DNA from: Pristiophorus japonicus
Taxonomy: Eukaryota
Direction: 5' to 3'
Length of the DNA: 64,000 nt
NCBI RefSeq assembly: GCF_044704955.1
Contig: NC_091987.1
Coordinates: 133,114,001-133,178,000, forward strand
Each line of letters begins with the position of its first letter. Within the stretch, counting starts at the first letter, position 1. Position numbers and translations under genes: made by a program. The notes under the pieces are model-generated. The model had not been told where the DNA came from, ran no database searches, and was given only the letters and a program-made list of their open reading frames with translations. Positions 10,955 through 50,578 of this stretch are shown here, piece after piece.

Positions 10955-11635
10955 AGTTGGCGAGAGGCGGGAGCAGCATCGGAGCAGCCTATAAAAGGCC
11001 CAGCGGGTGTTCCACAGGCAGCGGCAGTTGGTGAGAGGCGGGAGCAGCGTCGGAGCGGCCTATAAAGGCCCAGCGGGTGTTCCACAGGCAGCGGCAGTTG
11101 GTGAGAGGCGGGAGCAGCGTCGGAGCGGCCTATAAAGACCCAGCGGGTGTTCCACAGGCAACGGCAGTTGGTGAGAGGCAGAAGCAGCGTCAGAGCGGCC
11201 TATAAAGGCCCAGCGGGTGTTCCACAGGCAGCGGCAGTTGGTGAGAGGCGGGAGCAGTGTCGGAGCAGCCTATAAAGGCCCAGCGGGTGTTCCACAGGCA
11301 GCGGCAGTTGGTGAGAGGCGGGAGCAGTGTCGGAGCAGCCTATAAAGGCCCAGCGGGTGTTCCACAGGCAGCGGCAGTTGGTGAGAGGCGGGAGCAGTGT
11401 CGGAGCAGCCTATAAAGGCCCAGCGGGTGTTCCACAGGCAGCGGCAGTTGGTGAGAGGCGGGAGCAGCGTCGGAGCGGCCTATAAAGGCCCAGCGGGTGT
11501 GCCACAGGCAGCGGCAGTTGGTGAGAGGCGGGAGCAGCGTCGGAGCGGCCTATAAAGGCCCAGCGGGTGTTCCACAGGCAGCGGCAGTTGGTGAGAGGCG
11601 GGAGCAGCGTCGGAGAGGCCTATAAAGGCCCAGCT
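10955..11635 (+). repeat. 70-bp tandem monomers in the CR1 5' UTR, each containing a TATAAA box (consensus GGCCTATAAAGGCC)
   Basis: TATAAA at 10990, 11061, 11131, 11201, 11271, 11341, 11411, 11481, 11551 and 11621. Confidence 0.95.
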
Positions 11636-11818
11636 TGTGCAGCTGCAGCGGGGAGAGAAAGCAAAAAAGAAGTAGAAAGGAATCAAAAGGTGACGTCACA
11701 GCCAAGGGGGTAAGTGATTGGCTGGTGATTGGTGAGTAGCTTTTCTTTTTATTTTTTATATCAGTAAGTAAACTGTAACATTGTTGTTACCAATTTAAGG
11801 GTATCTAAGGGTTAAGGC

Positions 11819-12767
11819 ATGGCAGTAGAGCTCGGTCACGTGATATGCTCCTCCTGTACCATGTGGAAACTCAGGGACGCTTCCGGTGTCCCTGACGCCT
11901 ACGTGTGTGAGAAGTGTATCCGCCTCCATCTCCTGACGAACCGCGTTGCGGAATTGGAGCTGAGGGTGGATTCACTCTGGAGCATCCACGATGCTGAGAA
12001 TGACTTAAGTGGCATGTGTAGTGAGTTGGTCTTACCGCATGAGAAGGATCCACAGCCAGCTAGGGAATGGAAGACCAGCAGGAAGAGTAGTACAAAGAAA
12101 GTAGTGCAAGGGTCCCATCTGGTCATCCCCCTGCAAAACAGATACACTGCTTTGAGTGCTGTTGAGGGAGATGACTCATCAGGGGAGAGCAGCAGCAGCC
12201 AAGTTCATGGCACCGTGGCTGGCTTTGTTGTACAGGAGGGCATGAAAAAGAGTGGGAGAGCGATAGTGATGGGGGATTCAATCATAAGGGGAATAGATTG
12301 GCGTTTCTGCGGCCGCAATCGAGATTCCAGGATGGTATGTTGCCTCCCTGGTGCAAGGGTCAAGGATGTCTCCGAGCGAGTGTAGGACATTCTAAAAAGG
12401 GAGGGAGAGCAGCCAGTTGTCGTGGTGCACATTGGTACCAACGACATAGGTAAAAAAAAGGGATGAGGTCCTACGAGACGAATTTAAGGAGCTAGGAGCT
12501 AAATTAAAAAGTAGGACCTCAAAAGTAGTAATCTCGGGATTGCTACCAGTGCCACGTGCTAATCAGAGTAGGAATCGCAGGATAGCACAGATGAATACGT
12601 GGCTTGAGCAGTGGTGCAGCAGGGAGGGATTCAAATTCGTGGGGCATTGGAACAGGTTCTGGGGGAGGTGGGACCAGTACAAACTGGACGGTCTGCACTT
12701 GGGCAGGACCGGAACCAATGTCCTAGGGGGAGTGTTTGCTAGTGCTGTTGGGGAGGAGTTAAACTAA
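11819..12767 (+). pseudogene. CR1 ORF1 (CxxC/CxxC finger, leucine zipper, SGNH esterase) with a premature stop (12383-12385) and a frameshift (~12455)
   Basis: GDS, VVVHIGTND and DGLHL motifs; aligns with the intact ORF1 at 50579-51526. Confidence 0.9.
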
Positions 12768-12844
12768 TATGGCAGGGGGATGGGAACCAATACAGGGAGA
12801 CAGAGGGAAACAAAAAGGAGACAAAAACAAAAGACAGAAAAGAG

Positions 12845-15161
12845 ATGAGTAAAAGTGGAGGGCAGAGAAACCAAAGGCAAGAAACAAAAAAGGCCACTGA
12901 ATATAAAAGGGCTGCAAGAGGGATCAAAACTAAAAATCATGGTTTAAAAACTAGGATGAAAACACTCTACCTAAATACACGCAGCATTCGAAATAAAGTA
13001 AATGAGTTGACGGCACAAATCATTACAAATGGGTATGATTTGGTGGCCATTACAGAAACATGGTTGCAGGGTGGCCAAGACTGGGAATTAAACATACAGG
13101 GGTATCTGACGATTCAGAAAGATAGGCAAGAAGGGAAAGGAGGTGGGGTAGCTCTGTTAATAAAAGATGATATCAGGGCACTTGTGAGGGATGATATTGG
13201 CTCCAATGAAGAAAATGTTGAATCATTGTGGGTGGAGATTAGAAATAGTAAGGGGAAAAAGTCACTGGTCGGCGTAGTTTATAGGCCCCCAAATAATAAC
13301 TTCACGGTGGGGAAGGCAATAATCAAGGGAATAATGGAGGCATGTGAAAAAGGAACGGCAGTAGTCATGGGGGATTTTAACCTACATATCGATTGGTCAA
13401 ATCAAATCGCACGGGGTAGCCTGGAGGAGGAATTCATAGAATGCATACGGGATTGTTTCTTAGAACAGTATGTTACAGAACCTACAAGGGAGCAAGCTAT
13501 CTTAGATCTGGTCCTGTGTAATGAGACAGGAAAAATAAACGATCTCCTCGTAAAACATCCTCTCAGAATGAGTGATCACAATATGGTGGAATTTGTAATA
13601 CACATTCAGGATGAGGAAGTTGTGTCAGAAACGAGCGTACTATGCTTAAACAAAGGGGACTACAGTGGGATGAGGGCAGAGTTGGCTAAAGTAGACTGGA
13701 AACAAGGACTAAACAGTGGCACAATTGAGGAACAGTGGAGGACTTTTAAGGAGCTCTTTCATAGTGCGCAACAAAAATATATTCCAGTGAAAAAGAAGGG
13801 CGGCAAGAGAAGGGATAACCAGCCGTGGATAACCAAGGAAATAAAGGAAAGTATCAAATCAAAGACCAATGCGTATAAGGTGGCCAAGGTTAGTGGGAAA
13901 CTAGAGGATTGGGAAAATTTTAAGCAACAGCAAAGAATGACTAAAAAAGCAAAAAAGAAAGGGAAGATAGATTACGAAGGTAAACTTGCGCAAAACATAA
14001 AAACAGATAGTAAAAGCTTTTACAGATATATAAAACGGAAAAGAGTGACTAAAGTAAATATTGGTCCCTTAGAAGATGAAAAGGGGGATTTAATAATGGG
14101 AAATGTGGAAATGGCTGAGACCTTAAACAATTATTTTGCTTCGGTCTTCACAGTGGAAGACACAAAAACAATGCCAAAATTTGCAGGCCACAGGAATGTG
14201 GGAAGGGAGGACCTTGAGACAATCACTATCACTAGCGGGGTAGTGCTGGACAGGCTAATGGGACTGAAGGTAGACAAGTCCCCTGGTCCTGATGAAATGC
14301 ATCCCAGGGTATTAAAAGAGATGGCGGAAGTTATAGTAGATGCATTCGTTATAATCTATCAAAATTCTCTGGACTCTGGGGAGGTACCAGCGGATTGGAA
14401 AGCAGCTAATGTAACGCCTCTGTTTAAAAAAGGGGGCAGGCAAAAGGCAGGTAACTATAGGCCGGTTAGTTTAACATCTGGAGTGGGGAAAATGCTTGAA
14501 ACTATCATTAAGGAAGAAATAGCGGGACATCTAGATAGGAATAGTGCAATCAAGCAGACGCAGCATGGATTCATGAAAGGGAAATCATGTTTAACTAACT
14601 TCCTGGAATTCTTTGAGGATATAACGAGCATGGTAGATAGAGGTGTACCGATGGATGTGGTGTATTTAGATTTAAAAGGCATTCGATAAGGTGCCACACA
14701 AAAGATTACTGCAGAACATAAGGGTACGCGGAGTCAGAGGAAATGTATTAGCATGGATAGAGAATTGGCTGGCGAACAGAAAGCAGAGAGTGGGGATAAA
14801 TGGGTCCTTTTCCGGTTGGAAATCAGTGGTTAGTGGTGTGCCACAGGGATCAGTGCTCGGACCACAACTGTTTACAATATACATAGATGACCTAGAAGGG
14901 GGACAGAGTGTAGTGCAAGAAAATTTGCAGATGACACTAAGATTAGTGGGAAAGCGGGTTGTGTCGAGGACTCAGAGAGGCTGCAAAGAGATTTAGATAG
15001 GTTAAGCGAATGGGCTAAGGGTTTGGTAGATGGAATACAATGTCGGAAAGTGTGAGGTCATCCACCTTGGGAAAAAACACAGTAAAAGGGAATATTATTT
15101 GAATGGGGAGAAATTACAACATGCTGCGGTGCAGAGGGACCTGGGGGTCCTTGTGCATGAA
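12845..15161 (+). pseudogene. CR1 ORF2 5' part (APE endonuclease + most of RT), with frameshifts near 14675 and 14900
   Basis: ITETW, VYRPP, GDFN, SDH, KSPGPD, NYRPVSLTS and [10 protein letters not shown] motifs. Confidence 0.92.
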
Positions 15162-15374
15162 ACTCTTTTGAGTTTACCTGCAAAAACATAAACATTAAAA
15201 CCATGCCACCCGACCTGGGTGACACAGCAGCCATTTTCAAGGCCCCTTTTTTTTTTTGTTTTTTTGGGTTTTTTTGGGGCGCTAAAATCAAATTTTTCCA
15301 GTGCCCCCTATAAAAGGGGAGGGGGACACTAAAAGCACCGGCAATGAAAACAAATTAAACTTTAAAACGTAAAA

Positions 15375-18300
15375 TCAAATTAAAATTTGGTTGCCGGGCG
15401 TGATGATGCACTCCAGTCCCTCCGGTGCCCACCTCTCGCGGAAGGCCGCGAGCGTACCGGTGGACACCGCGTGCTCCATCTCCAAGAACACCCTGGACCG
15501 GATGTAAGAGCGGAAGAGAGGCAGGCAGTCAGGTTGAACGACCCCCTCGACCGCCCGCTGCCTGGACCGGCTGATGGCACCCTTGGCCGTGCCCAGGAGC
15601 AGTCCTACGAGGAGGCCTTCGGACCTACCCGCTCCCCTCCGCACAGGGTGCCCAAAGATCAGGAGAGTGGGACTGAAGTGCAGCCAGAATTTCAGGAGCA
15701 GCCCCTTCAAATAATGGAACAGGGGCTGCAACCTCGTGCACTCAATAAAAACATGGAACACGGACTCCTCCAGACCGCAGAAATTGCAGGCGGCCTGGGA
15801 GTCCGTGAACCGGCTTAAAAATTTGTTGCACGGCACTGCTCCGTGCACCACCCTCCAGGCCAAGTCCCCGATGAATAGTGGGAGGACCCCTGCGTAGAGT
15901 GCCCTCCATCGGGGACCCCCGCCTCCTCCGGACGGCAAGATGGTACGCCATGGCGTGTCCGGACGGCCGGCGAGGATGGCAAAGTTGAGGGTGTGCAGGA
16001 GCAGCCCATACAGGAAAACCCTCCGCGCGGAACTGAAAGGCACGGAGGGGATTTCTCCGAGGTGGCTCAAGTTGTGAGGCGCCGGCCCCCGAGGGAGGTT
16101 CCGGGGTTTGGCGCCGATGAGGAATTCCGTCCGGACGGGGGTCAGTTCGGACGGGATCTCCCCACGTGCTTGAGCCTCCTCGATGCACCTAACGGAGTCA
16201 GGGCCCAGAGCTGTTTTTAGCGGCTCGATGGCATCGGCCGCGTGGCGGACGTTGGCAGAGTTTAGGCGCCGCGCCAGCGTGTCTGGCGCCATCCAGCCCG
16301 CTCCTCCGCCATCGAGCAGGTCCCTGACCCTGGTCACCTCACCAGCCACAGCCCTCTCTTCCGACCGCCACATGAAACCTCGGCCGTGGAGGTACGGATT
16401 CCCGAGCAGCGGCTCCTGCAGGACGGCCGCCACTCCAGCCGGCGGAGAGCTGCGCTTGGTGGAGACTTTGTTCCAGACCCTGATGAGTTCCCTGTAAAAG
16501 ACAGGCAGCTCCCGGAGGGCGGTCCTGGCACCCCCCAAGTTCACAAACAGGAGCTGCGTGTCATAATTGAGGTCGCGCTGCTGGCGGAAGAAATACCTCA
16601 CCAGAGCACACCACCTAGGAGGGGGCTCGACGAAAAGGTATCTCTGCAGGGTCTGAAGACGGAAAGTCGCGAGCTGGGCGCTGACGCACACCAACGACTG
16701 ACCGCCCTCCTCAAGCGGGAGACTCAAGACCGCGGCAGAGACCCAGTGCTTCCTGTTGTTCCAGAAGAAGTCCACCAGCTTCTTCTGTATCTTGGCGACA
16801 AACGCAGGGGGAGGGGTCAAAGTGACCAGCCGGTACCACAGCATTGCGGCCACCAGCTGGTTTATGACTAGCGCTCGACCCCTGTAGGACAGCACTCGGA
16901 GCAGTCCTGTCCAGCGCCCTAGGCGAGCGGCGACCTTGGCCTCCAGCTCCTGCCAGTTCGCCGGCCAGGCTCCCTCGTCGGGGCTAAGGTAGACTCCCAG
17001 ATAGAGGAGATGGGTCGTGCTCCAGGCAAAAGGCCTGAGCTCCTCCGGCAGGGAGTCCACCCGCCACTGACCCACCAGGAGTCCGGAACATTTCTCCCAG
17101 TTGATCCTGGCGGAGGACGCGGCCGAGTAAATCTCCTGGCACTCACGCATTCTCCGCAGGTCAGCGGGATCTTCTACCGCGAGGAGCACGTCATCGGCGT
17201 AAGCCGAGAGGACGACCTCCACACCCGGCCCTTGCAGAGCCAGTCCCGTCAACCTCGTCCGCAAGAGGCGCAAGAAAGGCTCCACGCAAACGGCGTATAA
17301 CTGGCCGGACATGGGGCATCCCTGGCGCACCCCTCTCCTAAAGCGAAGCGGCGCCGTCAAGGACCCGTTAACCTTAATCAGACACTCCGCGGCGGCGTAC
17401 AAAAGTCGGATCCGGGCGACGAAATGCGTCCCGAACCCGAAAGCGCGCAGAGTTCCGAGCAGATAGTCATGATCCACCCTGTCGAACGCCTTCTCTTGGT
17501 CGAGGGATAGGAAGGCGACCGACAGACCAGCCTCCTGGGAACAATGGATGAGGTCCCGGACCAGATGGATGTTATCGTGGATTGTCCGGCCCGGGACCGT
17601 GTAGGACTGGTCGGGGTGGATCATGTGGTCCAGCACGGCACCAAGGCGAGCAGACATCGCCCTGGCGAAGATTTTGTAGTCCGTGCTGAGGAGGGAGACC
17701 GGGCGCCAGTTCTTAAGGAGGCGGAGATCGCCCTTCTTAGGCAGCAGGACGATGACTGCCCTGCGCCAAGAGAGGGGCATCTCACCGGTCGCCAGACTTT
17801 CCCCCAGGACCCGCGCGTAGTCGCTCCCCAGGACGTCCCAGAACGCCCTGTGGAACTCCACGGTCAGCCCGTCCAGCCCCGGGGATTTTCCCCTCGAGAG
17901 CCGGTCGAGGGCACCGGTCAGCTCCGCCAGGCTTAGCGGAGCTTCCAGATTTTCGGCGCCCTCCGGGCCGACCTGCGGCAGGTCCTCCCACAAAACTCTA
18001 CGCGCTTCCTCGCTGGACGGATCCGGAGAGAACAGAGCCCCGTAATATTCACGGGCCCTGTTGTTGACGCCCTCCGGATCCGAGACGAGAGAGCCGTCGT
18101 CGGCCAGCAGCGTCAAGAGCTGCTTACGGACACTCTGCCTTTTTTCCAGCGAGTAGAAGAAGGGGGAGCCGCGGTCCAGATCCCGCAGGATCCGGATCCG
18201 CGACCTCACGAACGCGCCTCGGGACCCGACGAGCTGCAGGTCCTTCAGCGCGGCCTTCTTCGCTTCGTACACCGTCCGCAGGGCCGGGTCCTGGACGACT

Positions 18301-19274
18301 TGACCGAGACGGGCTTCCAGGTCGAGCACCTCTTTTTCTAGGCGCCCGACTCTGGCCGCCCGCCTCTTGGTCGACCCCCTCGCGTACTCTTGACAGAAGA
18401 CGCGGACGTGAGCCTTGCCCACGTCCCACCATAGCCTCAAGGAGGGGAAGCCCCCCTGCTTCCTTCTCCAGTCGGACCAGAATCGACGGAACGAGTCCTG
18501 GAACCGCACTTCCTCCAGCAGCCGGTTGTTAAAGTGCCAGTACGTGGACCCCGTCCTCGCGCGGAGCGAAGCGAGCTCCGCCCACACCAGGTGGTGGTCC
18601 GAACACGGCACCGGCCGCATGGAGGCCGCCGGGACGCAGGAAACGTACGCCCGAGACACGTAAAGGCGGTCGACTCTAGACCACCCTACTCCAGGCCTCA
18701 CCCAAGTAAAGGCGCTGGAGTCGGGGTGGAGATTTCGCCAGACGTCCACCAAGTCGAAGGACCCGACCAGGTCCCTCAACTTCTCCATCGCCGTCATGCA
18801 CTGCGGGGCACCGGAGCGGTCCCTCGCCTCGAGGGTGCAGTTAAAATCCCCCCCGAGGACAATGCAGTCGCCGACGTCGACGGAGCCAAGAAGAGCGGAC
18901 ACCTCTTCAAAGAAGCGCGTTTGCTGCGGGCCGGGCTGAGGGGCATACACGTTCACGAGATGGAGCGGCACGTCCCCCAGGCGAACCGTTACGTGCAGCA
19001 AGCGGCCTGGCACGGGCTCCTCGACCCCCAAGATCTCCGGCTGAAAATGCGGGCCCAGTAAGGTGGCCACCCCACTAGAAATGGCGGTGAGGTGGCTCAT
19101 GCAGACCTCTCCTTGCCATTCCAGGAGCCACGTGGCTTCGTCTCCCGGAACGGTGTGGGTTTCTTGCAGGAAGCACACAGCATATTTCCCCTCCCGCAGG
19201 AGCGAAAAATTGTCAAATCTACGGCGTGCCCCTCTGCCGCCGTTGATGTTGAGGCTGGCTATGGTTATCTTCAT
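15375..19274 (-). CDS. Tx1 ORF2 (APE endonuclease - RT - C-terminal CCHC), apparently intact, 1299 aa from MKITIASLNING
   Basis: FLQETH, GGDFN, RVDRLY, SDH, LDQEKAFDRV, RQGCPMSG, YADD and CNFCG..ESVFHVFIEC motifs; no stops. Confidence 0.93.
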   Translation of the reverse strand: MKITIASLNINGGRGARRRFDNFSLLREGKYAVCFLQETHTVPGDEATWLLEWQGEVCMSHLTAISSGVATLLGPHFQPEILGVEEPVPGRLLHVTVRLGDVPLHLVNVYAPQPGPQQTRFFEEVSALLGSVDVGDCIVLGGDFNCTLEARDRSGAPQCMTAMEKLRDLVGSFDLVDVWRNLHPDSSAFTWVRPGVGWSRVDRLYVSRAYVSCVPAASMRPVPCSDHHLVWAELASLRARTGSTYWHFNNRLLEEVRFQDSFRRFWSDWRRKQGGFPSLRLWWDVGKAHVRVFCQEYARGSTKRRAARVGRLEKEVLDLEARLGQVVQDPALRTVYEAKKAALKDLQLVGSRGAFVRSRIRILRDLDRGSPFFYSLEKRQSVRKQLLTLLADDGSLVSDPEGVNNRAREYYGALFSPDPSSEEARRVLWEDLPQVGPEGAENLEAPLSLAELTGALDRLSRGKSPGLDGLTVEFHRAFWDVLGSDYARVLGESLATGEMPLSWRRAVIVLLPKKGDLRLLKNWRPVSLLSTDYKIFARAMSARLGAVLDHMIHPDQSYTVPGRTIHDNIHLVRDLIHCSQEAGLSVAFLSLDQEKAFDRVDHDYLLGTLRAFGFGTHFVARIRLLYAAAECLIKVNGSLTAPLRFRRGVRQGCPMSGQLYAVCVEPFLRLLRTRLTGLALQGPGVEVVLSAYADDVLLAVEDPADLRRMRECQEIYSAASSARINWEKCSGLLVGQWRVDSLPEELRPFAWSTTHLLYLGVYLSPDEGAWPANWQELEAKVAARLGRWTGLLRVLSYRGRALVINQLVAAMLWYRLVTLTPPPAFVAKIQKKLVDFFWNNRKHWVSAAVLSLPLEEGGQSLVCVSAQLATFRLQTLQRYLFVEPPPRWCALVRYFFRQQRDLNYDTQLLFVNLGGARTALRELPVFYRELIRVWNKVSTKRSSPPAGVAAVLQEPLLGNPYLHGRGFMWRSEERAVAGEVTRVRDLLDGGGAGWMAPDTLARRLNSANVRHAADAIEPLKTALGPDSVRCIEEAQARGEIPSELTPVRTEFLIGAKPRNLPRGPAPHNLSHLGEIPSVPFSSARRVFLYGLLLHTLNFAILAGRPDTPWRTILPSGGGGGPRWRALYAGVLPLFIGDLAWRVVHGAVPCNKFLSRFTDSQAACNFCGLEESVFHVFIECTRLQPLFHYLKGLLLKFWLHFSPTLLIFGHPVRRGAGRSEGLLVGLLLGTAKGAISRSRQRAVEGVVQPDCLPLFRSYIRSRVFLEMEHAVSTGTLAAFRERWAPEGLECIITPGNQILI

Positions 19275-19300
19275 GGCAAAAGCATAGTGCAACCTCTACC

Positions 19301-21399
19301 TTAACCTATTGTGGGGGAGGGAGCGGAGTCTTTTGTTGAACTCTGCTCCCTCCGCAGCCCAGCGAGGAGTCCCTCGAGCTCGCGCAGCTCAAGGTGTTGC
19401 GCCTTTGTCAAGGGCCCGCCCGCGGCCAAGGTTTTGACGGCGGCGCGGACGGACCCCTTGATCAGCTCTGGCTCGGACCATTTTTCCAGGGCCAGTCGGG
19501 CTTGGTTGCAGCGACCCCGGCTCTGGACCAAAAAGTCCCGGAGTTCCTTTGCAGGAATGAGGATGGTCTCGGCGGCGGCCGCGAGCAGATCCACCGCCTC
19601 GCTGGCGGTGGTCTCTAGGTCTTCACCCGCGTCCCCCACCGAGTCCCCGTCCTCCTCCGGGAGGTGGCCGCCAGCAGCCGGCCCATCGACCGCACAAGGT
19701 ACGGCAAATGAACCGGCCGCTCCAACCGGCCCTGGCTCTGCCCCGATCCCACCCCCAGGATCGTCGGCAGAGGAGTCCCCACTGGGCTCTTTTAAAAATG
19801 GTGCTGGGTCGGGAAATGACAGCGGAAGGGGTTCCCCCTCCGCCCCAGGAACTGGGGAACAAGGAGAGACCCGGCCATAGGAAATCCCCAGGCTCCCCAA
19901 GTGCACCAGCTCCAAAGTAAGGGGCGAGGGTGGGTGTTCCTCCCCCTCCCCGCTGCCACCCCCCGGCCCAGCATCTACAGTGTCATAAAAAACATTTGTT
20001 TCATTTTCTGCCGGGTCGAGCGACTCCCGGGGGAAGTTATGTATTGGCTGGGCGGGCTCAGGTTCGGCCTTTTCGGCCCCGCCCGCCTCAGTCCCCGGGA
20101 CGCCCGGCCCGGCGGCAATGCATTCCTCCGCGATCCCCATGCCCCCCACGACAGGCAGATCTTCCACGCCATCCCCGGGAGGCAGAGGCTGGGCAGCCTC
20201 GACTGTCTCACCCTCCCCGGGGACAGACTCCTCTCGCCTACGGCGCAGCTTGGGGGCGCTGGTGGGGGACGCGGGACACGCGGCGGGCACCGACTCCTCC
20301 GCGGAGGGATGTTGTTCCCCCTCCGCCTCAACGGAGCGGCGCCTCCTTTTGTTGCTGGAGGTGCGCTGAGGCAGGGAGACCTCCATGTCTGCCGAGGCCT
20401 CCCGCACCACCCCCCCTTTTCCTTTTCTTGCCCGCGCCCGAGCCCCTCTGTGGTATTGGTCAAGGGCTCAGGCACGGGCTCGGGGCACCCCGCGCTCGCC
20501 GGTGACTGGGTTGGGCTGAGCGCGGTGGTCAAATTGTCTGGCGCACTGAGGGGACCCGCCTCTGGATGTTTTGCCTTCTTCCGCGCCTTCTTTCCGGTCG
20601 GACGCTCTCCCTCCCCCCCTCCGGAGGCCCTGAAAACAAAGGCCTCCGGCGATGCCCGCGCACCCATGGCTCCCGGCACGCGGACGCAACTAGGGAGAGG
20701 GGTGGCGGCGGCGCCAGCCTTGGCCGCCTTCGGTGGTTTGGCGGCCTTGGAGGCGGGGCAGTTCTTGCGAATGTGCCCCACCTCCCTACAGGCATGGCAC
20801 CGCACGCCGTCCGACGTCCAGAAGACGCGGTAGGCAGTCCCCTCGTGCACCACATTAAAGTGCCCTTCCGTCATGTCCTCCCGCGCCAGCCGGACAAAGA
20901 GCTGGCGGCGGAAGGAGAACACGTGGCACAGGCTGTTCTCCCTGAGGCCGAGCGGTATGGGGTTGATCCCCGACCTTACCTCCCCCAGTTGGTGTAGGTG
21001 AGGGAGGAGGAGCTCAGCGGAAACAAATGGCGGGACGTTTGACACGATGACCCTCTGCGCGGTGGCCTCGAGAGAGTCCACCGGCAGGAACGTCCCGCCC
21101 ACCGTGAGCCCCTTTTCAAGGGCCAGGGACACCGCCCGCTCCGACCCCAGGAAGAAAACAGCCTTCCCAGACATCTTGGAGGCCGCGACAATGGCCGAGG
21201 GGCCGACTACCCCAGCCATCGCCCGCACGCACTCCTCAATGCTCATTGTGGGGTGAGTGTAGCTCTTGACCCCGTGTTTCCTGGTTATAAGTTGAAAAGG
21301 TGGCAGGGCAGCGGGTGGCGCAGGAGGTGCCGTGGAAGCGGTTGCCACCTGCGCATATGTCTTCGCTGGCCCTGCCACCGGCGTGGATGGGGTCGCCAT
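19301..21399 (-). pseudogene. Tx1 copy 1 ORF1 (CCHC knuckle, long Pro/Glu-rich C-terminal region) with one frameshift at ~20410
   Basis: CHACREVGHIRKNC knuckle; ORFs 19975-21402 and 19301-20410 join by a frameshift in a homopolymer run when compared with copy 2. Confidence 0.85.
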
Positions 21400-22596
21400 C
21401 ACGGGGTCCCTTAAGGGCTACACCCACCCCAAAGTCACAGGCCTTAATGGTCTTTATTGGCCTTGTATATTTAACTGAGCAGAGGAGCCCTTAACGAGGC
21501 ACCACTCCCCTAGTTGGCAATTGGGGAGGGGCCTTGCTCCCTCTGCTCAGTTGTCTTAATTGTTTTATCTTTTTTTTTAAATTAGAAGAAAGGGGTCTCA
21601 GAGAGAGAGGGGAGAAACAGAGTAACAGAGAAGGAGAGAGGGGGGGGGGGTGGGAAGGGGGGATGGGGGGACTGCGAGGGCAGGTCTCCCCTCGCAGCTG
21701 TGGGTGGGTGCAATCCCCAGATGGCAAAACACAAACACAGTCTTTGGGGTGGTCTTCAGGTGAGGGGAGAAGATGTCTTCACCTGGGGCAGCTAGAGCCA
21801 CCAGGCACACACTCCTAACGATGTTTAATTAGGTGATTAAGAAAAAATCTTCAGCCTGGTAGCTCCAGCTATCCCAGGCTAGGCAATTGGGGGGGGGGGG
21901 TTCAATTGTGGGGGGGGCCTAGTTGCAAGCAAGGCCCCCACACACACTACCACACACACACACCCCCCGCGATGTTCCGGCCCTCAGTGGTCTTCTTTCC
22001 TCCCCCCACCGATATAACAAAGTCTTTTTGGGAAATGCACCCACACCCACCTGTAGAAATGTAGAGTCTCCCTCCTTCCACACTGGATGTTGTTGTTGTT
22101 GGTCTTTTCCCCCTCTCTCCAACACCTTGCAGAAATGGTAAAGAGTTGTTTAAAGTTTTCTGCTTTTTCCTCCTCTCCCTCTGGGTGAAAGTTGGTGGTG
22201 AAGCCCCTTCCTTCCTTCTCTTCCTGGGCTGGTCTCAGGGCTCTCCAGGCAGGGGCAAAAGTTGATAGCTGCTCCTCTCACAGCAGCTCAGCTCCTCTGA
22301 GCAGGACACGCCTCCACTGCTCCACAATTGGTCCTTGTGCATGAAACTCTTTTAGAGTCTACCTGCAAAACATAAACATTAAACTGTGCCACCCGACCTG
22401 GGTGACACACCAGACATTTACAAGGCCCTTTTTTTCCTTTTTTTGGTTTTTTTTTGTGTTTTTTTTTTGTGTTTTTTTTTGTGTTTTTTTTTTTTTTTGG
22501 GCACTAAAATCACAATTTCTCCGGTGCCCCCTATAAAAGGGAAGGGGACACTAAAAGCACCGGCAATTAAAACAAATTAAACTTTAAAACGTAAAA

Positions 22597-25500
22597 TCAA
22601 ATTAAAATTTGGTTGCCGGGCGTGATGATGCACTCCAGTCCCTCCGGTGCCCACCTCTCGCGGAAGGCCGCGAGCGTACCGGTGGACACTGCGTGCTCCA
22701 TCTCCAAGGACACCCTGGACCGGATGTAAGAGCGGAAGAGAGGCAGGCAGTCAGGTTGAACGACCCCCTCGACCGCCCGCTGCCTGGACCGGCTGATGGC
22801 ACCCTTGGCCGTGCCCAGGAGCAGTCCTACGAGGAGGCCTTCGGACCTACCCGCTCCCCTCCGCACAGGGTGCCCAAAGATCAGGAGCGTGGGACTGAAG
22901 TGCAGCCAGAATTTCAGGAGCAGCCCCTTCAAATAATGGAACAGGGGCTGCAACCTCGTGCACTCAATAAAAACATGGAACACGGACTCCTCCAGACCGC
23001 AGAAATTGCAGGCGGCCTGGGAGTCCGTGAACCGGCTTAAAAATTTGTTGCACGGCACTGCTCCGTGCACCACCCTCCAGGTCAAGTCCCCGATGAATAG
23101 TAGGAGACCCCTGCGTAGAGTGCCCTCCATCGGGGACCCCCGCCTCCTCCGGACGGCAAGATGGTACGCCATGGCGTGTCCGGACGGCCGGCGAGGATGG
23201 CAAAGTTGAGGGTGTGCAGGAGCAGCCCGTACAGGAAACCCCTCCGCGCGGAACTGAAAGGCACGGAGAGGATTTCCCCGAGGCGGCTCAAGTTGTGAGG
23301 CGCCGGCCCCCGAGGGAGGTTCCGGGGTTTGGCGCCGATGAGGAATTCCGTCCGGACGGGGGTCAGTTCGGACGGGATCTCCCCACGTGCTTGAGCCTCC
23401 TCGATGCACCTAACGGAGTCAGGGCCCAGAGCTGTTTTTAGCGACTCGATGGCATCGGCCGCGTGGCGGACATTGGCAGAGTTTAGGCGCCGCGCCAGCG
23501 TGTCTGGCGCCATCCAGCCCGCTCCTCCGCCATCGAGCAGGTCCCTGACCCTGGTCACCTCACCAGCCACAGCCCTCTCTTCCGACCGCCACATGAAACC
23601 TCGGCCGTGGAGGTACGGATTCCCGAGCAGCGGCTCCTGCAGGACGGCCGCCACTCCAGCCGGCGGAGAGCTGCGCTTGGTGGAGACTTTGTTCCAGACC
23701 CTGATGAGTTCCCTGTAAAAGACAGGCAGCTCCCGGAGGGCGGTCCTGGCACCCCCCAAGTTCACAAACAGGAGCTGCGTGTCATAATTGAGGTCGCGCT
23801 GCTGGCGGAAGAAATACCTCGCCAGAGCACACCACCTAGGAGGGGGCTCGACGTAAAGGTATCTCTGCAGGGTCTGAAGACGGAAAGTCGCGAGCTGGGC
23901 GCTGACGCACACCAACGACTGACCGCCCTCCTCAAGCGGGAGACTCAAGACCGCGGCAGAGACCCAGTGCTTCCTGTTGTTCCAGAAGAAGTCCACCAGC
24001 TTCTTCTGTATCTTGGCGACAAACGCAGGGGGAGGGGTCAAAGTGACCAGCCGGTACCACAACATTGCGGCCACCAGCTGGTTTATGACTAGCGCTCGAC
24101 CCCTGTAGGACAGCACTCGGAGCAGTCCTGTCCAGCGCCCTAGGCGAGCGGCGACCTTGGCCTCCAGCTCCTGCCAGTTCGCCGGCCAGGCTCCCTCGTC
24201 GGGGCTAAGGTAGACTCCCAGATAGAGGAGATGGGTCGTGCTCCAGGCAAAAGGCCTGAGCTCCTCCGGCAGGGAGTCCACCCGCCACTGACCCACCAGG
24301 AGTCCGGAACATTTCTCCCAGTTGATCCTGGCGGAGGACGCGGCCGAGTAAATCTCCTGGCACTCACGCATCCTCCGCAGGTCAGCGGGATCTTCTACCG
24401 CGAGGAGCACGTCATCGGCGTAAGCCGAGAGGACGACCTCCACGCCCGGCCCTTGCAGAGCCAGTCCCGTCAACCTCGTCCGCAAGAGGCGCAGGAAAGG
24501 CTCCACGCAAACGGCGTATAACTGGCCGGACATGGGGCATCCCTGGCGCACCCCTCTCCTAAAGCGAAGGGGCGCCGTCAAGGACCCGTTAACCTTAATC
24601 AGACACTCCGCGGCGGCGTACAAAAGTCGGATCCGGGCGACGAAATGCGTCCCGAACCCGAAAGCGCGCAGAGTTCCGAGCAGATAGTCGTGATCCACCC
24701 TGTCGAACGCCTTCTCTTGGTCGAGGGATAGGAAGGCGACCGACAGACCAGCCTCCTGGGAACAATGGATGAGGTCCCGGACCAGATGGATGTTATCGTG
24801 GATTGTCCGGCCCGGGACCGTGTAGGACTGGTCGGGGTGGATCATGTGGTCCAGCACGGCACCAAGGCGAGCAGACATCGCCCTGGCGAAGATTTTGTAG
24901 TCCGTGCTGAGGAGGGAGACCGGGCGCCAGTTCTTAAGGAGGCGGAGATCGCCCTTCTTAGGCAGCAGGACGATGACTGCCCTGCGCCAAGAGAGGGGCA
25001 TCTCCCCGGTCGCCAGACTTTCCCCCAGGACCCGCACGTAGTCGCTCCCCAGGACGTCCCAGAATGCCCTGTGGAACTCCACGGTCAGCCCGTCCAGCCC
25101 CGGGGATTTTCCCCTCGAGAGCCGGGCGAGGGCACCGGTCAGCTCCGCCAGGCTTAGCGGAGCTTCCAGATTTTCGGCGCCCTCCGGGCTGACCTTCGGC
25201 AGGTCCTCCCACAAAACTCTACGCGCTTCCTCGCTGGACGGATCCGGAGAGAACAGAGCCCCGTAATATTCACGGGCCCTGTTGTTGACGCCCTCCGGAT
25301 CCGAGACGAGAGAGCCGTCGTCGGCCAGCAGCGTCAAGAGCTGCTTACGGACACTCTGCCTTTTTTCCAGCGAGTAGAAGAAGGGGGAGCCGCGGTCCAG
25401 ATCCCGCAGGAACCGGATCCGCGACCTCACGAACGCGCCTCGGGACCCGACGAGCTGCAGGTCCTTCAGCGCGGCCCTCTTCGCTTCGTACACCGTCCGC

Positions 25501-26495
25501 AGGGCCGGGTCCTGGACGACTTGACCGAGACGGGCTTCCAGGTCGAGCACCTCTTTTTCTAGGCGCCCGACTCTGGCCGCCCGCCTCTTGGTCGACCCCC
25601 TCGCGTACTCTTGACAGAAGACGCGGACGTGAGCCTTGCCCACGTCCCACCATAGCCTCAAGGAGGGGAAGCCCCCCTGCTTCCTTCTCCAGTCGGACCA
25701 GAATCGACGGAACGAGTCCTGGAACCGCACGTCCTCCAGCAGCCGGTTGTTAAAGTGCCAGTACGCGGACCCCGTCCTCGCGCGGAGCGAAGCGAGCTCC
25801 GCCCACACCAGGTGGTGGTCCGAACACGGCACCGGCCGCATGGAGGCCGCCGGGACGCAGGAAACGTACGCCCGAGACACGTAAAGGCGGTCGACTCTAG
25901 ACCATCCAACTCCAGGCCTCACCCAAGTAAAGGCGCTGGAGTTGGGGTGGAGATTTCGCCAGACGTCCACCAAGTCGAAGGACCCGACCAGGTCCCTCAA
26001 CTTCTCCATCGCCGTCATGCACTGCGGGGCACCGGAGCGGTCCCTCGCCTCGAGGGTGCAGTTAAAATCCCCCCCGAGGACAATGCAGTCGCCGACGTCG
26101 ACGGAGCCAAGAAGAGCGGACACCTCTTCAAAGAAGCGCGTTTGCTGCGGGCCGGGCTGAGGGGCGTACACGTTCACGAGATGGAGCGGCACGTCCCCCA
26201 GGCGAACCGTTACGTGCAGCAAGCAGCCTGGCACGGGCTCCTCGACCCCCAAGATCTCCGGCTGAAAATGCGGGCCCAGCAAGATGGCCACCCCACTAGA
26301 AATGGCGGTGAGGTGGCTCATGCGGACCTCTCCTTGCCATTCCAGGAGCCACGTGGCTTCGTCTCCCGGAACGGTGTGGGTTTCTTGCAGGAAGCACACC
26401 GCATATTTCCCCTCCCGCAGGAGCGAAAAATTGTCAAATCTACGGCGTGCCCCTCTGCCGCCGTTGATGTTGAGGCTGGCTATGGTTATCTTCAT
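22597..26495 (-). pseudogene. Tx1 copy 2 ORF2, single 1-bp deletion near 23105
   Basis: 3899 nt versus 3900 nt in copy 1; ORFs 23082-26567 and 22597-23409 together give the full protein. Confidence 0.88.
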
Positions 26496-26521
26496 GGCAA
26501 AAGCATAGTGCAACCTCTTCC

Positions 26522-28612
26522 TTAGCCTATTGTGGGGGAGGGAGTGGAGTCGTTTGTTGACCTCCACTCCATCAGCAGCCCAGCGAGGAACTTTTTGAGC
26601 CGGCGCAGCTCAAGGCCTTGAGCCTTTGATAAGGGCCCGCCCGCGGCCATGGTTTTAGCGGCGGCGCGGACGGACGCGACGAGCAGCCCCGGCTCGGACC
26701 ATCTTTCCAGGGCCAGACGGGCTTGGTCGCGGCGACCCCGGCACTGGACCAAAAAGTCCCGGAGTTCCTCTGCGGGAATGAGGAGGGTCTCAGTGGCGGC
26801 CGCGAGCAGATCCACCGCCTCACTGGCGATGGACTAGAGATCTTCACCCGCGTCCTCCACCGAGTCCCCGTCCCCCTCCGGGAGGTCGCCGCTAGCAGCC
26901 GGCCCGTCGACCGCAGGAGGTACGGCAAACGGCCCGGCCGCTCCATTTGGCCCTGGCTCTGCCCCGATCCCACCCCCAGGATCGTCGGCAGAGGAGTCCC
27001 CACTGGGCTCTTTTAAAATTGGTGCTGGGTCGGGAAGCGACAGCGGAAGGGGTTCCCCCTCCTCCCCAGGAACCGGGGAACAGGGAGAGACCTGGTCAAA
27101 GTAATGTTCCAGGTCCTCCAATTCCCCCAGCTCCACAGTAGGGGGCGAGGGTTGTTGTTCTTCTCCCTCCCCGGCGCCACCCCCCAGCCCAGCGTGAACG
27201 GATTCCATAAAATTGGCATTTTCAGAGTCGAGCGACTCCCGGGGGAAGTTGGATAATAGCTGGGCGGGCTCAGGTTCAGCCTTTTCGGCCCCGCCCGCCT
27301 CAGTCTCCGGGACGCTCGACCCGGCGGCTACGCATTCTTCCACTGGCCCCACGCCCCCCACGACAGGCAGATCTGCCACGCCCTCCCCAGGAGGCAGCGG
27401 CTGGGCAGCCTCGACTGCCTCACCCTCCCCGGGGACAGACTCCTCGCGCCTGCAGCGCAATTTGGGGGCGCTGGTGGGGGACGCGGGACACGCGGCGGGC
27501 ACCGCCTCCTCCGCAGAGGGACGTTGTTCCCCCTCCGCCTCATCGGGGCGGTGCCTCCTTTTGTTCCTGGGGGTGCGCGGAGGCAGGGGGACCTCCATGT
27601 CTGCCGAGGCCTCCCGCTCCGCCCCCCCCTTTTCCTTATCTTGCCTTCGCCTGAGCCCCTCTGCGGTATTGGTCAAGGGCTCGGGCACGGGCGCAGGGCA
27701 CCCCGCGCTCGTCGGTGACTGGGTTGGGCTGAGCGCGGTGGTCAAACTTTCCGGCGCACTGAGGGGACCCGCCTCTAGATGTCTCGTCTTCTTCCGCGCC
27801 TTCTTTTCGATCGGACGCTCTCCCTCCCCCCCGCCGGAGGCCGTGAAAACAAAGGCCCCCGACGATGCCCGCGCACCCATGGCTCCCGGCACGCGGACGC
27901 AACTAGGGGGAGGGGTGGCGGCGGCGCCAGCCTTGGCCGCCTTCGGTGGTTTGGCGGCCTTGGAGGCGGGGCAGTTCTTACGAACGTGCCCCACCTCCCT
28001 ACAGGCATGGCACCGCACGCCGTCCGACGTCCAGAAGACGCGGTAGGCAGTCCCCTCGTGCACCACATTAAAGTGCCCTTCCGTCATGTCCTCCCGCGCC
28101 AGCCGGACAAAGAGCTGGCGGCGGAAGGAGAACACGTGGCGCAGGCTGTTCTCCCTGAGTCCGAGCGGTATGGGGTTGATCCCCGACCTTACCTCCCCCA
28201 GTTGGTGTAGGTGAGGGAGGAGGAGCTCAGCGGAAACAAATGGCGGGACGTTTGACACGATGACCCTCTGCGCGGTGGCCTCGAGAGGGTCCACCGGCAG
28301 GAACGTCCCGCCCACCGTGAGCCCCTTTTCAAGGGCCAGGGACACCGCCCGCTCCGACCCCAGGAAGAACACGGCCTTCCCAGACATCTTGGAGGCTGCG
28401 ACAATGGCCGAGGGGCCGACTACCCCAGCCATCGCCCGCACGCACTCCTCGATGGTCATTGTGGGGTGAGTGTAGCTCTTGACCCCGTGTTTTTTAGTAA
28501 TAAGTGTAAAAGGTGGCAGGGCAGCGGGTGGCGCAGGAGGTGCCGTGGAAGCGGTTGCCACCTGCGCATATGTCTTCGCTGGCCCTGCCACCGGCGTGGA
28601 TGGGGTCGCCAT
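26522..28612 (-). pseudogene. Tx1 copy 2 ORF1 with an in-frame TAG at 26834-26836
   Basis: EDL* where copy 1 reads EDLE; the frame continues to ...SPTIG* at 26522. Confidence 0.85.
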
Positions 28613-29522
28613 CACGGGGTCCCTTTAAGGGCTACACCCACCCCAAAGTCACAGGCCTTAATGGTCTTTAATGGCCTCGTATATTAACTGAGCAGAGGAG
28701 CCCTTAACGAGGCACCTCTCCCCTCGTTGGATTGGGGAGAGGCCTTGCTCCCTCTGCTCAGTTGTCTCAATTGTTTTTTTTTTAAATTAGGAAGAAAGGG
28801 CTCTCAGAGAGAGAGGGGAGAAACAGAGTAACAGAGAAAGAGAGAGGGGGGTGGGAAGCGGGGGGGGGAACTGCGAGGGCAGGTCTCCCCTCGCAGCTGT
28901 GGGTGGGTGCAATCCCAGATGGCAAAACACAAAGTCTTTGGGGTGGTCTTCAGGTGAGGGGAGAAGATGTCTTCACCTGGGGTAGCTAGAGCCAACCAGG
29001 CACACACTCCCAACGATGTTTAATTAGGTGATTAGGAGAAATTCTTGAGCCTGGTAGCTCCAGCTATCCCAGGCTAGGCAATTGGGGGGGGGGGGGTTCA
29101 ATTGTGTGTGGGGCCTAGTTGTAAGCAAGGCCCCCACACACACTTCCACACACACACACGATGTTCCGGCCCTCAGTGGTCTTCTTTCCTCCCCCCACCG
29201 ATATAACAAAGTCTTTTTGGGACTGCACCAACACCCACCTGTAGAATGGTAGAGTCTCCCTCCTTCCACACTGGATGTTGTTGGTTTTTTCCCCCTCTCT
29301 CCAACTCCTTGCAGAAATGGTAAAAAGTTGAAATGTTTTCTGCTTCCTCCTCTCCCTCTGGGTTAAAGTTGGTGGTGAAGCCCCTTCCTTCCTTCTCTTC
29401 CTGGGCTGGTCTCAGGGCTCTCCAGGCAGGGGCAAAAGTTGATAGCTGCTCCTCTCACAGCAGCTCAGCTCCTCTGAGCAGGACACGCCTCCACTGCTCC
29501 ACAATTGGTCCTTGTGCATGAA

Positions 29523-30125
29523 TCCCAAAAGGTTAGTTTGCAGGTGCAGCAGGTAATCAGGAAGGCGAATGGAATGTTGGCCTTCATTGCGAGAGGGATG
29601 GAGTACAAAAGCAGGGAGGTCCTGCTGCAACTGTATAAGGTATTGGTGAGGCCGCACCTGGAGTACTGCGTGCAGTTTTGGTCACCTTACTTAAGGAAGG
29701 ATATACTAGCTTTGGAAGGGGTACAGAGACGATTCACTAGGCTGATTCCAGAAATGAGGGGGTTATCTAATGATGATAGATTGAGTAGACTGGGTCTTTA
29801 CTCGTTGGAGTTCAGAAGGATGAGGGGTGATTTTATAGAAACATTTAAAATCATGAAAGGGATAGACAAGATAGAGGCAGAGAGGTTGTTTCCATTGATA
29901 AGGGAGACTAGAACTAGGGGGCACAGCCTCAAAATACGGAGGAGCCAATTTAAAACCGAGTTGAGAAGGAATTTCTTCTCCCAGAGGGTTGTGAATCTGT
30001 GGAATTCTCTGCCCAAGGAAGCAGTTGAGGCTAGCTCATTGAATGTTTTCAAGTCAAGGATAGATAGATTTTTAACCAATAAGGGAATTAAGGGTTACGG
30101 GGAGAGGGCGGGTAGGTGGAGCTGA
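29523..30125 (+). pseudogene. CR1 copy 1 ORF2 C-terminal part, resuming after the Tx1 pair
   Basis: QRDLGVLVHE|SQKVSLQVQQ...LVRPHLEYCVQFWSP...TRGHSLK...FFSQRVVNLWNSLP. Confidence 0.92.
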
Positions 30126-30237
30126 GTCCACAACCAGATCAGCCATGATCTTATTGAATGGTGGAACAGGCTTGAGGGGCTAGATGGCCTACTCCTGTTC
30201 CTAATTCTTATGTTCTTATGTTCTTATGTTCTTATGT

Positions 30238-32191
30238 CTCAGTACACTACTAGAACCACTACATGTCTTACTATGAAAAGAGGGCGAATGGGTTTTGGGC
30301 AAAAGCCAAGAAAATGCCTTTGTAAAAGCGAGAAAATTGTTATGCTCAAACAACTTGCTTGTGTTGTATGATCCATGTAAGCGTTTGGTACTAGCATGTG
30401 ATGCGTCGTCATATGGCGTCGGGTGTGTATTGCAACAAGCTAATGATTTTGGGAAACTGCAACCGGTTGCTTATGCATCCAGGAGTCTGTCTAAGGCTGA
30501 GAGAGCCTACAGCATGATTGAAAAAGAAGCGTTAGCATGTGTCTATGTGGTAAAGAAAATGCATCAATACCTGTTTGGGCTAAAATTCGAATTGGAAACT
30601 GACCATAAGCCACTTATATCCCTGTTTTCCAAGAGTAAAGGGATAAATACCAACGCATCGGCCCGCATCCAGATATGGGCGCTCATGTTGTCCAAATACA
30701 ACTACGCCATCCGCCACAGATCAGTCACAGAAAACTGCGCCGATGCTCTCAGTAGGCTGCCATTGCCCACCACGGGGGTGGAAATGGCACAGCCCACAGA
30801 TCTATCCATGGTTATGGAAGCATTTGAGAGTGAGCAATCATCCGTCACTGCCCGGCAGATCAAAACCTGGACAAGCCAAGACCCCTTATTATCTCTAGTC
30901 AAAAGCTGTGTTCTTCACGGGAGCTGGTCCAGTGTCCCAGTGGAAATGCAGGAAGAGATAAAGCCGTTCCAGTGGCGCAAAGGTGAAATGTCGATACAGG
31001 CAGACTGCCTTCTGTAGGGCAATCGAGTAGTGGTCCCCAAGAAGGGCAGAGGTACCTTCATCAATGACCTATGCAGTACCCATCCAGGCATCGTAATGAT
31101 GAAAGCGATAGCCAGATCCCACGTGTGGTGGCCTGGTATCGATGCGGACTTAGAGTCCTGCGTTCACAGATATAATACATGCTCGCAGTTAAGCAATGTA
31201 CCCAGGGAGGCGCCGTTAAGTTTATGATCTTGGCCCTACAAACCGTGGTCTAGGGTACACATCGACTATGCAGGCCCGTTCTTGGGTAAAATGTTCCTTG
31301 TGGTTGTAGACGCGTACTCCAAGTGGATTGAATGTGAGATAATGTTGGCTAGCACGTCTGCTGCCACTACTGAAAACCTGCAGGCCATGTTTGCCACACA
31401 CAGCTTACCCGATGTCCTGGTGAGCGACAACGGACCATGTTTTACCAGTGCTGAGTTCAAAGAATTCATGACCCGTAACGGGATCAAACATATCACATCT
31501 GCCCTGTTTAAACCAGCGTCCAATGGTCAGGCAGAGAGAGCAGTGTAAACCATCAAGCAAGGCTTGAAGAGGGTAACTGAAGGCTCACTGCAGACTCGCC
31601 TATCCCGAGTCCTGCTTAGCTACCGCACGAGACCCCACTCACTCACTGGGATCCCACCTGCAGAACTGCTCATGAAAAGAGCACTTAAGACAAGGCTCTT
31701 GTTTGTTCACCCTGATCTACAGAGCAGGCGGCTTCAACAAAGTGCATATCATGATAGTGCAAATGTGTCACGCGAGATTGAAATCAATGATCCTGTATTT
31801 GTATTAAATTATGGACAAAGTCCCAAGTGGTTTCCCGGCACTGTCGTGGCCAAAGAGGAGAGCAGGGTGTTTCGGGTCAAACTTTCAAATGGACTCATTC
31901 ACCGGAAACACTTGGACCAAATCAAACTCAGATTCACAGACTATCCTGAGCAACCCACCTTGGACCTTACCTTTTTTGATTCCCCACACAGTGGCAACCG
32001 GCACCACGGTTGACCATGAAACAGAACCCATCATCCACAGTAGCCCTGCAGAGCCAAAAACACCAGGCAGCCCAACAAGGCCAGCTGCACAGCAGCCCAG
32101 CGAGGGCCCAACAAATGATTCAACAACACCAGCTTTCACACTGAGACGATCAACCAGGGCAAGAAGGACCCTAGATCGACTCACATTGTAA
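30238..32191 (+). pseudogene. Gypsy A pol 3' part (RNase H + integrase), decayed
   Basis: LACDASSYGVG, ETDHKPL, RSHVWWPGID, VVVDAYSKW, SDNGPCF and SNGQAERAV motifs. Confidence 0.92.
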
Positions 32192-50218: not shown

Positions 50219-50578
50219 AGAGGCCTATAAAAGGCACAGCAGGGAGTCCGGGGCTAGCGTCGGCGGCAGTCGGGAGCAGCGTCGAGGAGGTCCATTGGAG
50301 AGGACTATAAAAGGCACAGCAGGGATTCCGGGGCCCAGCGTCGGCACAGTCGGGAGCAGCGTCGAGGAGGTGCGTGGAGAGGCCTATAAAAGGCGTACTT
50401 GTGCAGCTACAGGGGGAAGGCAAAAAAGAAGTAGAAAGAAATCAAAAGGTGACGTCACAGCCAAGAGGGTAAGTGATTGGCTGGTGATTGGTGAGTAGTT
50501 TTTCTTTTTTCTCTTCTATATCAGTGAGTAACTTTTAACATTGTTGTTGCCAATTTAAGTGTATCTAAGGGTTAAGTC

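Follow-up and report, generated by a model that had tools for sequence, protein, structure and literature searches.

Relation to known target-specific elements

Among the closest described systems is Tx1L of Xenopus laevis, which uses a single insertion site within a different transposon (PMC4494074 and PMC1950540, excerpted texts). The shark family described here shares this habit, and its ORF2 matches that of Tx1L at 49% identity across the full length (100%) and at 62.6% in the RT region, has the same APE motifs, YADD, and CCHC in corresponding places, and falls on the same branch of the RT tree. The two differ in that Tx1L targets a DNA transposon (Tx1D), whereas the target of the shark family is a LINE; in addition, the shark family has a specificity loop with a shorter tip, lacking RDGH. 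Crocodilian Tx1-Mar, Tx1-8_Crp, Tx1-4_AMi, and Tx1-9_AMi likewise have transposon targets, are partly antisense, and often lie in tandem, the crocodilian targets being Mariner, LTR retrotransposons, and Harbinger (Kojima 2015, PMC4494074, excerpted text). These families are old (85–87% to the consensus) and have two target regions, whereas the shark family is young and uses one base-exact site; the same excerpts name no non-LTR target for them and report no shared 5′ joints.

R1 in the 28S rDNA of Drosophila is also an APE element with a 14-bp duplication and head-to-tail stacks (Stage and Eickbush 2009, PMC2718515, excerpted text). According to these excerpts, R1 stacks grow at the duplication on the 5′ side of the resident, and annealing of the cDNA to upstream DNA was proposed to account for precise 5′ joints. 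R1 differs in its clade (R1), in its rDNA target, and in its annealing partner, which is target sequence on the RNA, and a truncation point inherited from a neighbour is not described in the excerpts.

The CR1 target differs from every target named for known Tx1 families in the excerpted text of PMC4494074; the named families considered were Tx1L, Keno, Dewa, Mutsu, Kibi, Koshi, and Tx1-Mar, and a shark entry in Repbase or Dfam is possible. In the freely accessible article texts searched, no Tx1 family aimed at CR1 or another LINE was found, and none described the inheritance of truncation points. What appears to be new is the choice of a LINE as target and the way in which the stacks form; elements of this class, Tx1 families with transposon targets, and stacks of the R1 type were already known.

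Two Tx1 copies in one CR1 of the window

The window, i.e., the whole 64,000-bp stretch of Pristiophorus japonicus DNA that was analysed, contains a CR1 on the plus strand that is split by two inserts. Its 5′ part (10955..15161) comprises a 5′ UTR with 70-bp repeats, an esterase-type ORF1 (from about 11819) with an in-frame stop at 12383-12385 and a frameshift, and an APE/RT ORF2 with breaks at about 14689 and 14888. The 3′ part (29523..30237, plus strand) comprises the end of ORF2, a short 3′ UTR, and four copies of an 8-bp terminal repeat. The ORF1 region matched window positions 50219-52334 at 80.5%, and the ORF of the latter matches the Pfam GDSL lipase family. A terminal repeat is a trait of CR1. 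The host thus has the CR1 traits of an esterase ORF1, an APE-RT ORF2, no poly(A), and a short 3′ UTR with a terminal simple repeat. An esterase ORF1 and the lack of poly(A) are reported for CR1, and the L2 elements of sharks, rays, and chimaeras are reported to lack ORF1, in the excerpted text of PMC13343379; for the latter reason, assignment of the host to CR1 is favoured over L2. A host-CR1 duplication was looked for and not found.

A 16-mer occurs at 15146, 22330, and 29507, flanking both elements as first noticed; these are all its occurrences in the window, where no further match with up to 3 mismatches was found on either strand. Taking out both inserts (7168 bp for copy 1 and 7161 bp for copy 2, ~7.17 kb each) recovered the CR1 reading QRDLGVLVHESQKV, confirming the restored ORF2. 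Both copies are full length, antisense within CR1 ORF2, and carry damaged ORFs. Copy 1 (15162..22331, minus strand) has no poly(A) at its 3′ junction and an A-rich tract about 100 nt internal to it; its ORF2 (15375..19274, minus strand) is intact at 1299 aa, and its ORF1 (19301..21399, minus strand) is frameshifted, the intact form in other copies having about 700 aa. Copy 2 (22346..29508, minus strand) has a 3′ UTR and an ORF1 subfamily unlike those of copy 1, and on the minus strand its ORF1 reading (28612-26834) contains a premature stop and its ORF2 reading (starting at 26495) a late frameshift.

The two copies are 95.9% identical (6826/7116). The strong divergence described in the earlier note was reproduced, with 80–88.5% identity in the C-terminal part of ORF1 and about 88% in the 3′ UTR, vs. 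97.5–100% in each 200 bp of ORF2. The termini were said there to be the same; at the 5′ ends the first 142 nt are indeed identical (22188..22329 and 29365-29506, minus strand). Among the best 40 genomic matches by score, only the two window copies had 100% identity to the tract. Private variants numbered 20 vs. 13, from which copy 1 is probably older and copy 2 the later arrival.

Copy 1 ORF2 contains an APE endonuclease, an RT (YADD at 692), and a C-terminal CCHC, which is the layout of the Tx1 clade, and its best named full-length match was YTX2_XENLA (P0004). An intact ORF1 from another copy matched the "Transposon TX1 82 kDa protein ORF 1" (E 2e-15, 21% coverage) and turtle proteins. In the RT tree, which has a CR1 outgroup on a very long branch and leaves out one truncated Takifugu row, the family branched with Tx1L and with turtle, sturgeon, and ray proteins (support 86/99 and 82/70, not starred). 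The tree placement and the ORF2 match to Xenopus Tx1L support membership of the Tx1 clade, and variable 5′ truncation with target duplication was observed, as for that clade.

Target specificity across the genome

Exact junctions of the target and the 3′ end of the element numbered 15,910 (reversed control, 0), and 7,586 of 10,084 intact 3′ ends (75%) adjoined the target motif genome-wide, a share above the 20% of flanks of one sequence type by which Kojima defines a target-specific Tx1 family (PMC4494074, excerpted text). The flanks of other copies, which the earlier note had proposed to tabulate, were therefore non-random and lay mostly at the CR1 target motif. These counts support its candidate, a site-specific Tx1 LINE family, and place the family antisense at the same position of CR1 ORF2 in thousands of loci. 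In samples, 5′ ends were at the target in 30/30 cases, of which 24 ran into another copy, and 3′ ends in 23/30 and 26/30, with 7/30 and 4/30 off target. The exact motif was absent before about a quarter of 3′ ends, and the specificity is supported as strong yet not absolute. One off-target site was struck three times with a shared breakpoint. Among exactly matching CR1 sites, 6,255 were filled vs. 23,634 empty, corresponding to at most about 21% filled. Another CR1 family, the most frequent of the others nearby, has no GAA at the target position and was found empty there.

Read on the sense strand of CR1, the 3′ junction is fixed and follows ...GTGCATGAA. Among 78 distinct truncation junctions, 54 fit a 14-bp duplication (37 exactly), 6 fit 16 bp, and 19 had no recognisable duplication. 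The repeated site of the earlier note is real, and its length of 16 bp was rejected on these junctions in favour of 14 bp; the leading GG of the 16-mer most likely belongs to the 5′ end of the element. In the window, the 14-bp duplications lie at 15148..15161, ending at the putative first-strand nick after GAA, and at 22332..22345 (between the elements) and 29509..29522, both within 16-mer matches, all on the plus strand. The 14-bp duplication was present at off-target sites too.

In runs of organisms B, C, and D, CR1 was present with the same site unoccupied, as were fragments of the element or a relative, and no junction-bridging contigs were among those listed for these organisms. Contamination is possible for the signals of B and C. 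Run X14 was searched and gave no element or target signal.

Independent insertions and shared 5′ joints

The 50 host CR1s examined differed by a median of 5.0% (0/1,225 pairs under 1%), and Tx1 ORF2 divergence was about 1.5%, vs. about 5% among hosts. With ~3 times the divergence among hosts that is seen among the Tx1 ORF2s, most hosts were probably already dead when hit. The suggestion that insertion inactivates CR1 is unsupported, since the window host has its stop and frameshifts away from the insertion. As a sign of activity, 11 of 32 full-length copies have an intact ORF1 (698–700 aa) and ORF2 (1299 aa), three of them being near-identical duplicates. Unstacked truncated copies had 13 different breakpoints (n = 13). 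The scattered truncations, together with hosts about 5% apart and ORF2s about 1.5% apart, exclude hitchhiking. Amplification of a single CR1–Tx1 composite by hitchhiking or segmental duplication, or stacks created in assembly, is accordingly hard to credit: L061-L063 and L196/L197 resemble segmental duplicates, but many distinct breakpoints come with fresh 14-bp duplications, hosts diverge more than inserts, and single stacks hold different subfamilies. Against an artefact, the joint of target and 3′ end occurs in public-run contigs, and one contig of a second sample bridges a 5′ joint. Independent stacking is supported genome-wide. Simple tandem duplication or later recombination accounts for some members of the stacks.

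Stack sizes at 73 loci (first 100 junctions) were 58 single, 9 double, 5 triple, and 1 of nine copies; 20.5% of loci had at least two copies, vs. 11.3% under a one-site Poisson model and 20.9% under a model in which every copy adds a site. Stack sizes fit the latter and alone are therefore no proof that residents attract newcomers.

The stacks came from hits that cluster, most of them on a single contig, and pairs in one stack are non-independent; with this sampling, 30 of 38 neighbouring truncated pairs had the exact 5′ breakpoint in common, mostly with different 3′ ends. At least three differences in the last 62 nt were found in 23/27 truncated neighbour pairs and in 11/14 pairs found by junction pattern. 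One breakpoint was seen 22 times over 17 loci, including 5 adjacent repeats, and odd junction bases were likewise common to stack neighbours. For full-length copies, the median run of identical 5′ nt was 63 in neighbours vs. 3 in unlinked pairs, and at least 140 identical nt were found in 6/21 neighbour pairs vs. 1/648 unlinked pairs. The shared 5′ termini of neighbours exceed family similarity, and unlinked copies share far less, a pattern that the earlier note did not pick up. For most of the truncated pairs, the distance from the junction to the first lineage difference did not exceed that of unlinked pairs, so that the copied tract is only bounded as short.

With real targeting, 5′ joints could also have become shared after insertion, a newcomer that had a 5′ end of its own undergoing unequal crossover or conversion with the single-copy allele of the homologous or sister chromatid. 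Such a route can yield a terminal shared junction, the copies are highly mosaic, and whole-copy duplications (A2-A4, E2-E3, one four-copy unit in stack I, and L191) and long shared tracts (A1-A2, about 5 kb; A8-A9, about 4 kb) were observed. It would, however, have to affect about 80% of truncated neighbours, including copies of 240–300 bp. Evenly spread crossovers predict that half of the length is shared, whereas the first lineage difference fell in the first 15% for 6 of 12 testable pairs (pairs of at least 900 bp, KS p 0.0004; 5 pairs with under 3 lineage differences, 3 possibly with long tracts, were left out). We regard this explanation as unlikely.

The copy at the 5′ side of the resident tends to be younger, a modest signal: the left copy had more private variants at 10 loci and the right at 1, with 3 ties (p 0.012), and first vs. 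last stack copies gave 18 vs. 6 of 26 (p 0.023). Nearest unlinked relatives as indicators of donor and recipient gave no direction, the copies being too mosaic. The age polarity is opposite to that expected (10 vs. 1 loci, 18 vs. 6 stacks) if newcomers used the intact target at the 3′ side of the resident and copied the remote 5′ junction of the copy lying behind. Entry on that side would account for the stacks without an intact duplication at the shared junction (Y173, V167, L147, and L133). In three of these (Y173, V167, and L147), the shared junction has a destroyed duplication; for these stacks, 5′-side growth would have required a degenerate target, and growth at the intact 3′-side site fits better. 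Stack L175, with a tiny extra copy at every junction, is simpler under 5′-side growth, and 3′-side entry is improbable as the general course. Internal insertions apparently also occur (stacks I and Lx).

Proposed course of insertion

Because breakpoints are shared, 3′ ends mostly differ, and the 5′-side copy tends to be younger, newcomers likely finish on the 5′ end of the resident. The ORF2 endonuclease would nick after GAA and then 14 nt away on the other strand. The RNA, lacking a poly(A) tail, probably reads through into the target and may pair with the primer, adding specificity. A newcomer would likely integrate by target-primed reverse transcription, starting at the duplicated target next to the 5′ end of the resident. 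The newcomer's cDNA, a direct repeat of the adjacent resident, could pair with the resident's 5′ end by strand invasion, a longer-staggered second nick, or sister-chromatid repair. The 5′ end of the newcomer would then be completed across the resident's junction. As a whole, we consider it probable that this is a Tx1 family antisense at the CR1 site with 14-bp duplications and head-to-tail stacks, in which the 5′ joint of newcomers is likely copied from the resident.

Implications

The joining of LINE 5′ ends and the start of second-strand synthesis are still poorly resolved, and thousands of stacks preserve what results from a nick at which a homologous copy is present. With intact ORFs and a defined 14-bp target, the question of 5′ joining is directly testable. 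The transposon targets of Tx1 are extended to another LINE, and 15,910 or more insertions shape the 5.9-Gb genome. On a tentative reading, a still-active LINE may be a base-exact hyperparasite of another LINE, in which a resident draws in the following insertion and serves as the template for its 5′ end during integration. If true, the stacks would be thousands of natural records of the priming of second-strand synthesis, and the family would provide a compact vertebrate enzyme whose homing site recurs tens of thousands of times in junk DNA.

Structure of the stacked elements in the window

The 16-mer described in the earlier note as standing before, between, and after the two Tx1 copies was recovered exactly at 15146, 22330, and 29507, with no other match within three mismatches in the window. 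By alignment, the elements between its occurrences are 7168 bp and 7161 bp long, lie on the minus strand, and are 95.9% identical. Their ORF2, containing APE, RT, and zinc-knuckle domains, is nearly identical, while the C-terminal part of ORF1 and the 3′ UTR are only 80–88% identical, in line with the strong divergence reported for these regions. Joined together, the sequences flanking the stack make up a single CR1-type element that has an esterase-type ORF1 and an APE-RT ORF2 and ends in an 8-bp repeat; this host CR1 carries its own stop and frameshifts at positions distant from the Tx1 insertion. RNase H domains of the LTR-retrotransposon type (8182–8790 and 30277–31014, plus strand) flank it on both sides.

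A 21-bp GC-rich minisatellite of about 80–100 copies occupies 829–2980, and a large satellite built of 15/36/51-bp units, with a strong strand skew, occupies 36129–50218 and 58603–64000. CR1 copies at about 50219–58598 interrupt this satellite, comprising three further pieces (50219–52334, plus; 52525–56531, minus; 56710–58598, plus), two of them with a GDSL-esterase ORF1. The two of these pieces that span the homologous site belong to a family without the target motif, and both are empty there.

Genome-wide targeting of CR1

Flanks of Tx1 termini were examined across the 5.9-Gb genome, and most copies were located at the CR1 target, as had been proposed. All 30 5′ ends fetched among 40 scored from 2,364 candidates (two being the window's own) ran into the target, and 24 continued into another Tx1 copy. 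The 3′ ends were on target in 23 of 30 cases when picked by similarity and in 26 of 30 when picked by position on contig C1, where some members were in the same stack or duplicated. Exact target/3′-end junctions numbered 15,910 genome-wide, against 0 for the reversed control, and the last seven target bases directly preceded 7,586 of 10,084 intact 3′ ends. Because of these genome-wide counts, it is near certain that this is a real CR1-targeting Tx1 family.

In one exact CR1 context, 6,255 sites were filled versus 23,634 empty; the filled fraction is at most about 21% of exact-context sites, the empty count covering this single context. Older CR1 subfamilies carrying the same motif were also filled (loci L070, L143, and L150). 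Of the other CR1 families in the DNA retrieved, the most common lacked the motif, and its homologous position was empty.

The expected target duplication of about 16 bp was not borne out. Among 78 distinct truncation junctions, 54 fitted 14 bp (37 exactly), six fitted 16 bp, and 19 had no recognizable duplication. Five of 11 off-target copies had 13–15-bp duplications of unrelated sequence, every one ending in GAA; together with the 14-bp fit, this points to the enzyme as the likely determinant of the stagger length. The window's additional GG is likely part of the Tx1 element rather than of the duplication, and other Tx1 subfamilies have three different bases at its position. Off-target sites outside CR1 (L051 1450–2300 and L136) were inserted into two or three times, one off-target site holding three stacked copies.

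Family identity, probable activity, and host age

The assignment to Tx1 held: ORF2 is 49% identical to Xenopus Tx1L ORF2 over its whole length, an RT tree groups it with Tx1L and turtle, sturgeon, and ray proteins with moderate support (the closest relatives being from a ray), and an intact ORF1 from another genomic copy matches the TX1 82-kDa protein. Both ORFs were kept in 11 of 32 full-length copies examined, and therefore the family is young and likely active. The target is also shared by stacks of a divergent subfamily (L034, L196, and L197), whose 5′ part is 77–84% identical.

Among known systems, Mutsu targets 5S and Dewa targets tRNA arrays. Tx1L inserts in Tx1D, crocodilian Tx1 families insert in Mariner, Harbinger, and LTR elements (PMC4494074), and in vitro the Tx1L endonuclease shows sequence specificity (PMC1950540). 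A literature search covering listings and abstract openings, outside Repbase and subscription papers, retrieved no LINE-targeting Tx1 family, and a term search and one section of a vertebrate-CR1 paper (PMC13343379) contained no mention of Tx1.

Passive spread of Tx1 by hitchhiking on amplified CR1 was ruled out, as 13 unstacked 5′-truncated copies had 13 different breakpoints and the hosts were more diverged than their inserts (median of 5.0% for 50 host CR1s versus 1.5% for Tx1 ORF2). This divergence suggests that most host CR1s were already decaying when Tx1 inserted. The proposed inactivation of CR1 by the family is therefore unsupported.

Stack growth and proposed templated 5′ completion

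Stacks of two to nine or more Tx1 copies were common. Stack loci were chosen from clustered matches, mostly on contig C1, and pairs inside one stack are not independent. Truncated neighbors shared the same terminal 5′ base in 30 of 38 pairs (one of the eight exceptions being a split alignment), often with identical extra or missing junction bases. Their 3′ termini were distinct in 23 of 27 pairs. Independent stacking at one site was supported genome-wide. Two junction patterns counted across the genome gave 22 matches at 17 loci and 75 matches, respectively; adjacent repeats of both far exceeded their roughly 0.1–0.5% share of junctions, and 11 of 14 such neighbor pairs differed at the 3′ end. 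Full-length neighbors had a median of 63 identical 5′ bases versus 3 for unlinked pairs, and the window pair had 142.

Stacks also contained smaller units. At L183–L185 (G000:C4:98.49–98.52 Mb), five mini-copies of roughly 290 bp, each with a target duplication, consist of the 5′ 280 nt fused to the last 14 or so nt of the element, possibly a non-autonomous derivative. Stubs of 4–15 nt from the 3′ end, each with its own duplication, lie inside stacks at L191, L194, L206, L210, L175, and L201.

With variants private to a locus as an age proxy, the older copy was the one closer to the 5′ half of CR1 at 10 loci and the one farther from it at 1, with 3 ties, and a comparison of first and last copies pointed in the same direction (18 versus 6 of 26). 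Most newcomers therefore likely land at the duplication next to the 5′ end of the resident. Similarly, growth at the duplication on the resident's 5′ side was proposed for R1 arrays (PMC2718515). At that site, the cDNA of a newcomer would repeat the neighboring resident in direct orientation. As in the annealing model for R1 5′ joints (PMC2718515) and as with annealed 5′ joints (PMC11371274), it may pair with the resident, and the newcomer would be finished across the resident's junction. Among the 12 long pairs that could be tested, with five others excluded for too few differences, six had the first lineage difference inside the first 15%, and the copied tract is usually short.

In stacks Lx and 132x, the internal duplication has the common sequence and both outer ends have a host variant, a hint that the RNA may have carried target sequence along. 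Plain duplications also occur, and the target is not intact at some shared junctions, both of which argue against a single mechanism for all stacks. Templated 5′ completion during insertion is the likeliest reading of how the stacks of this family arise.
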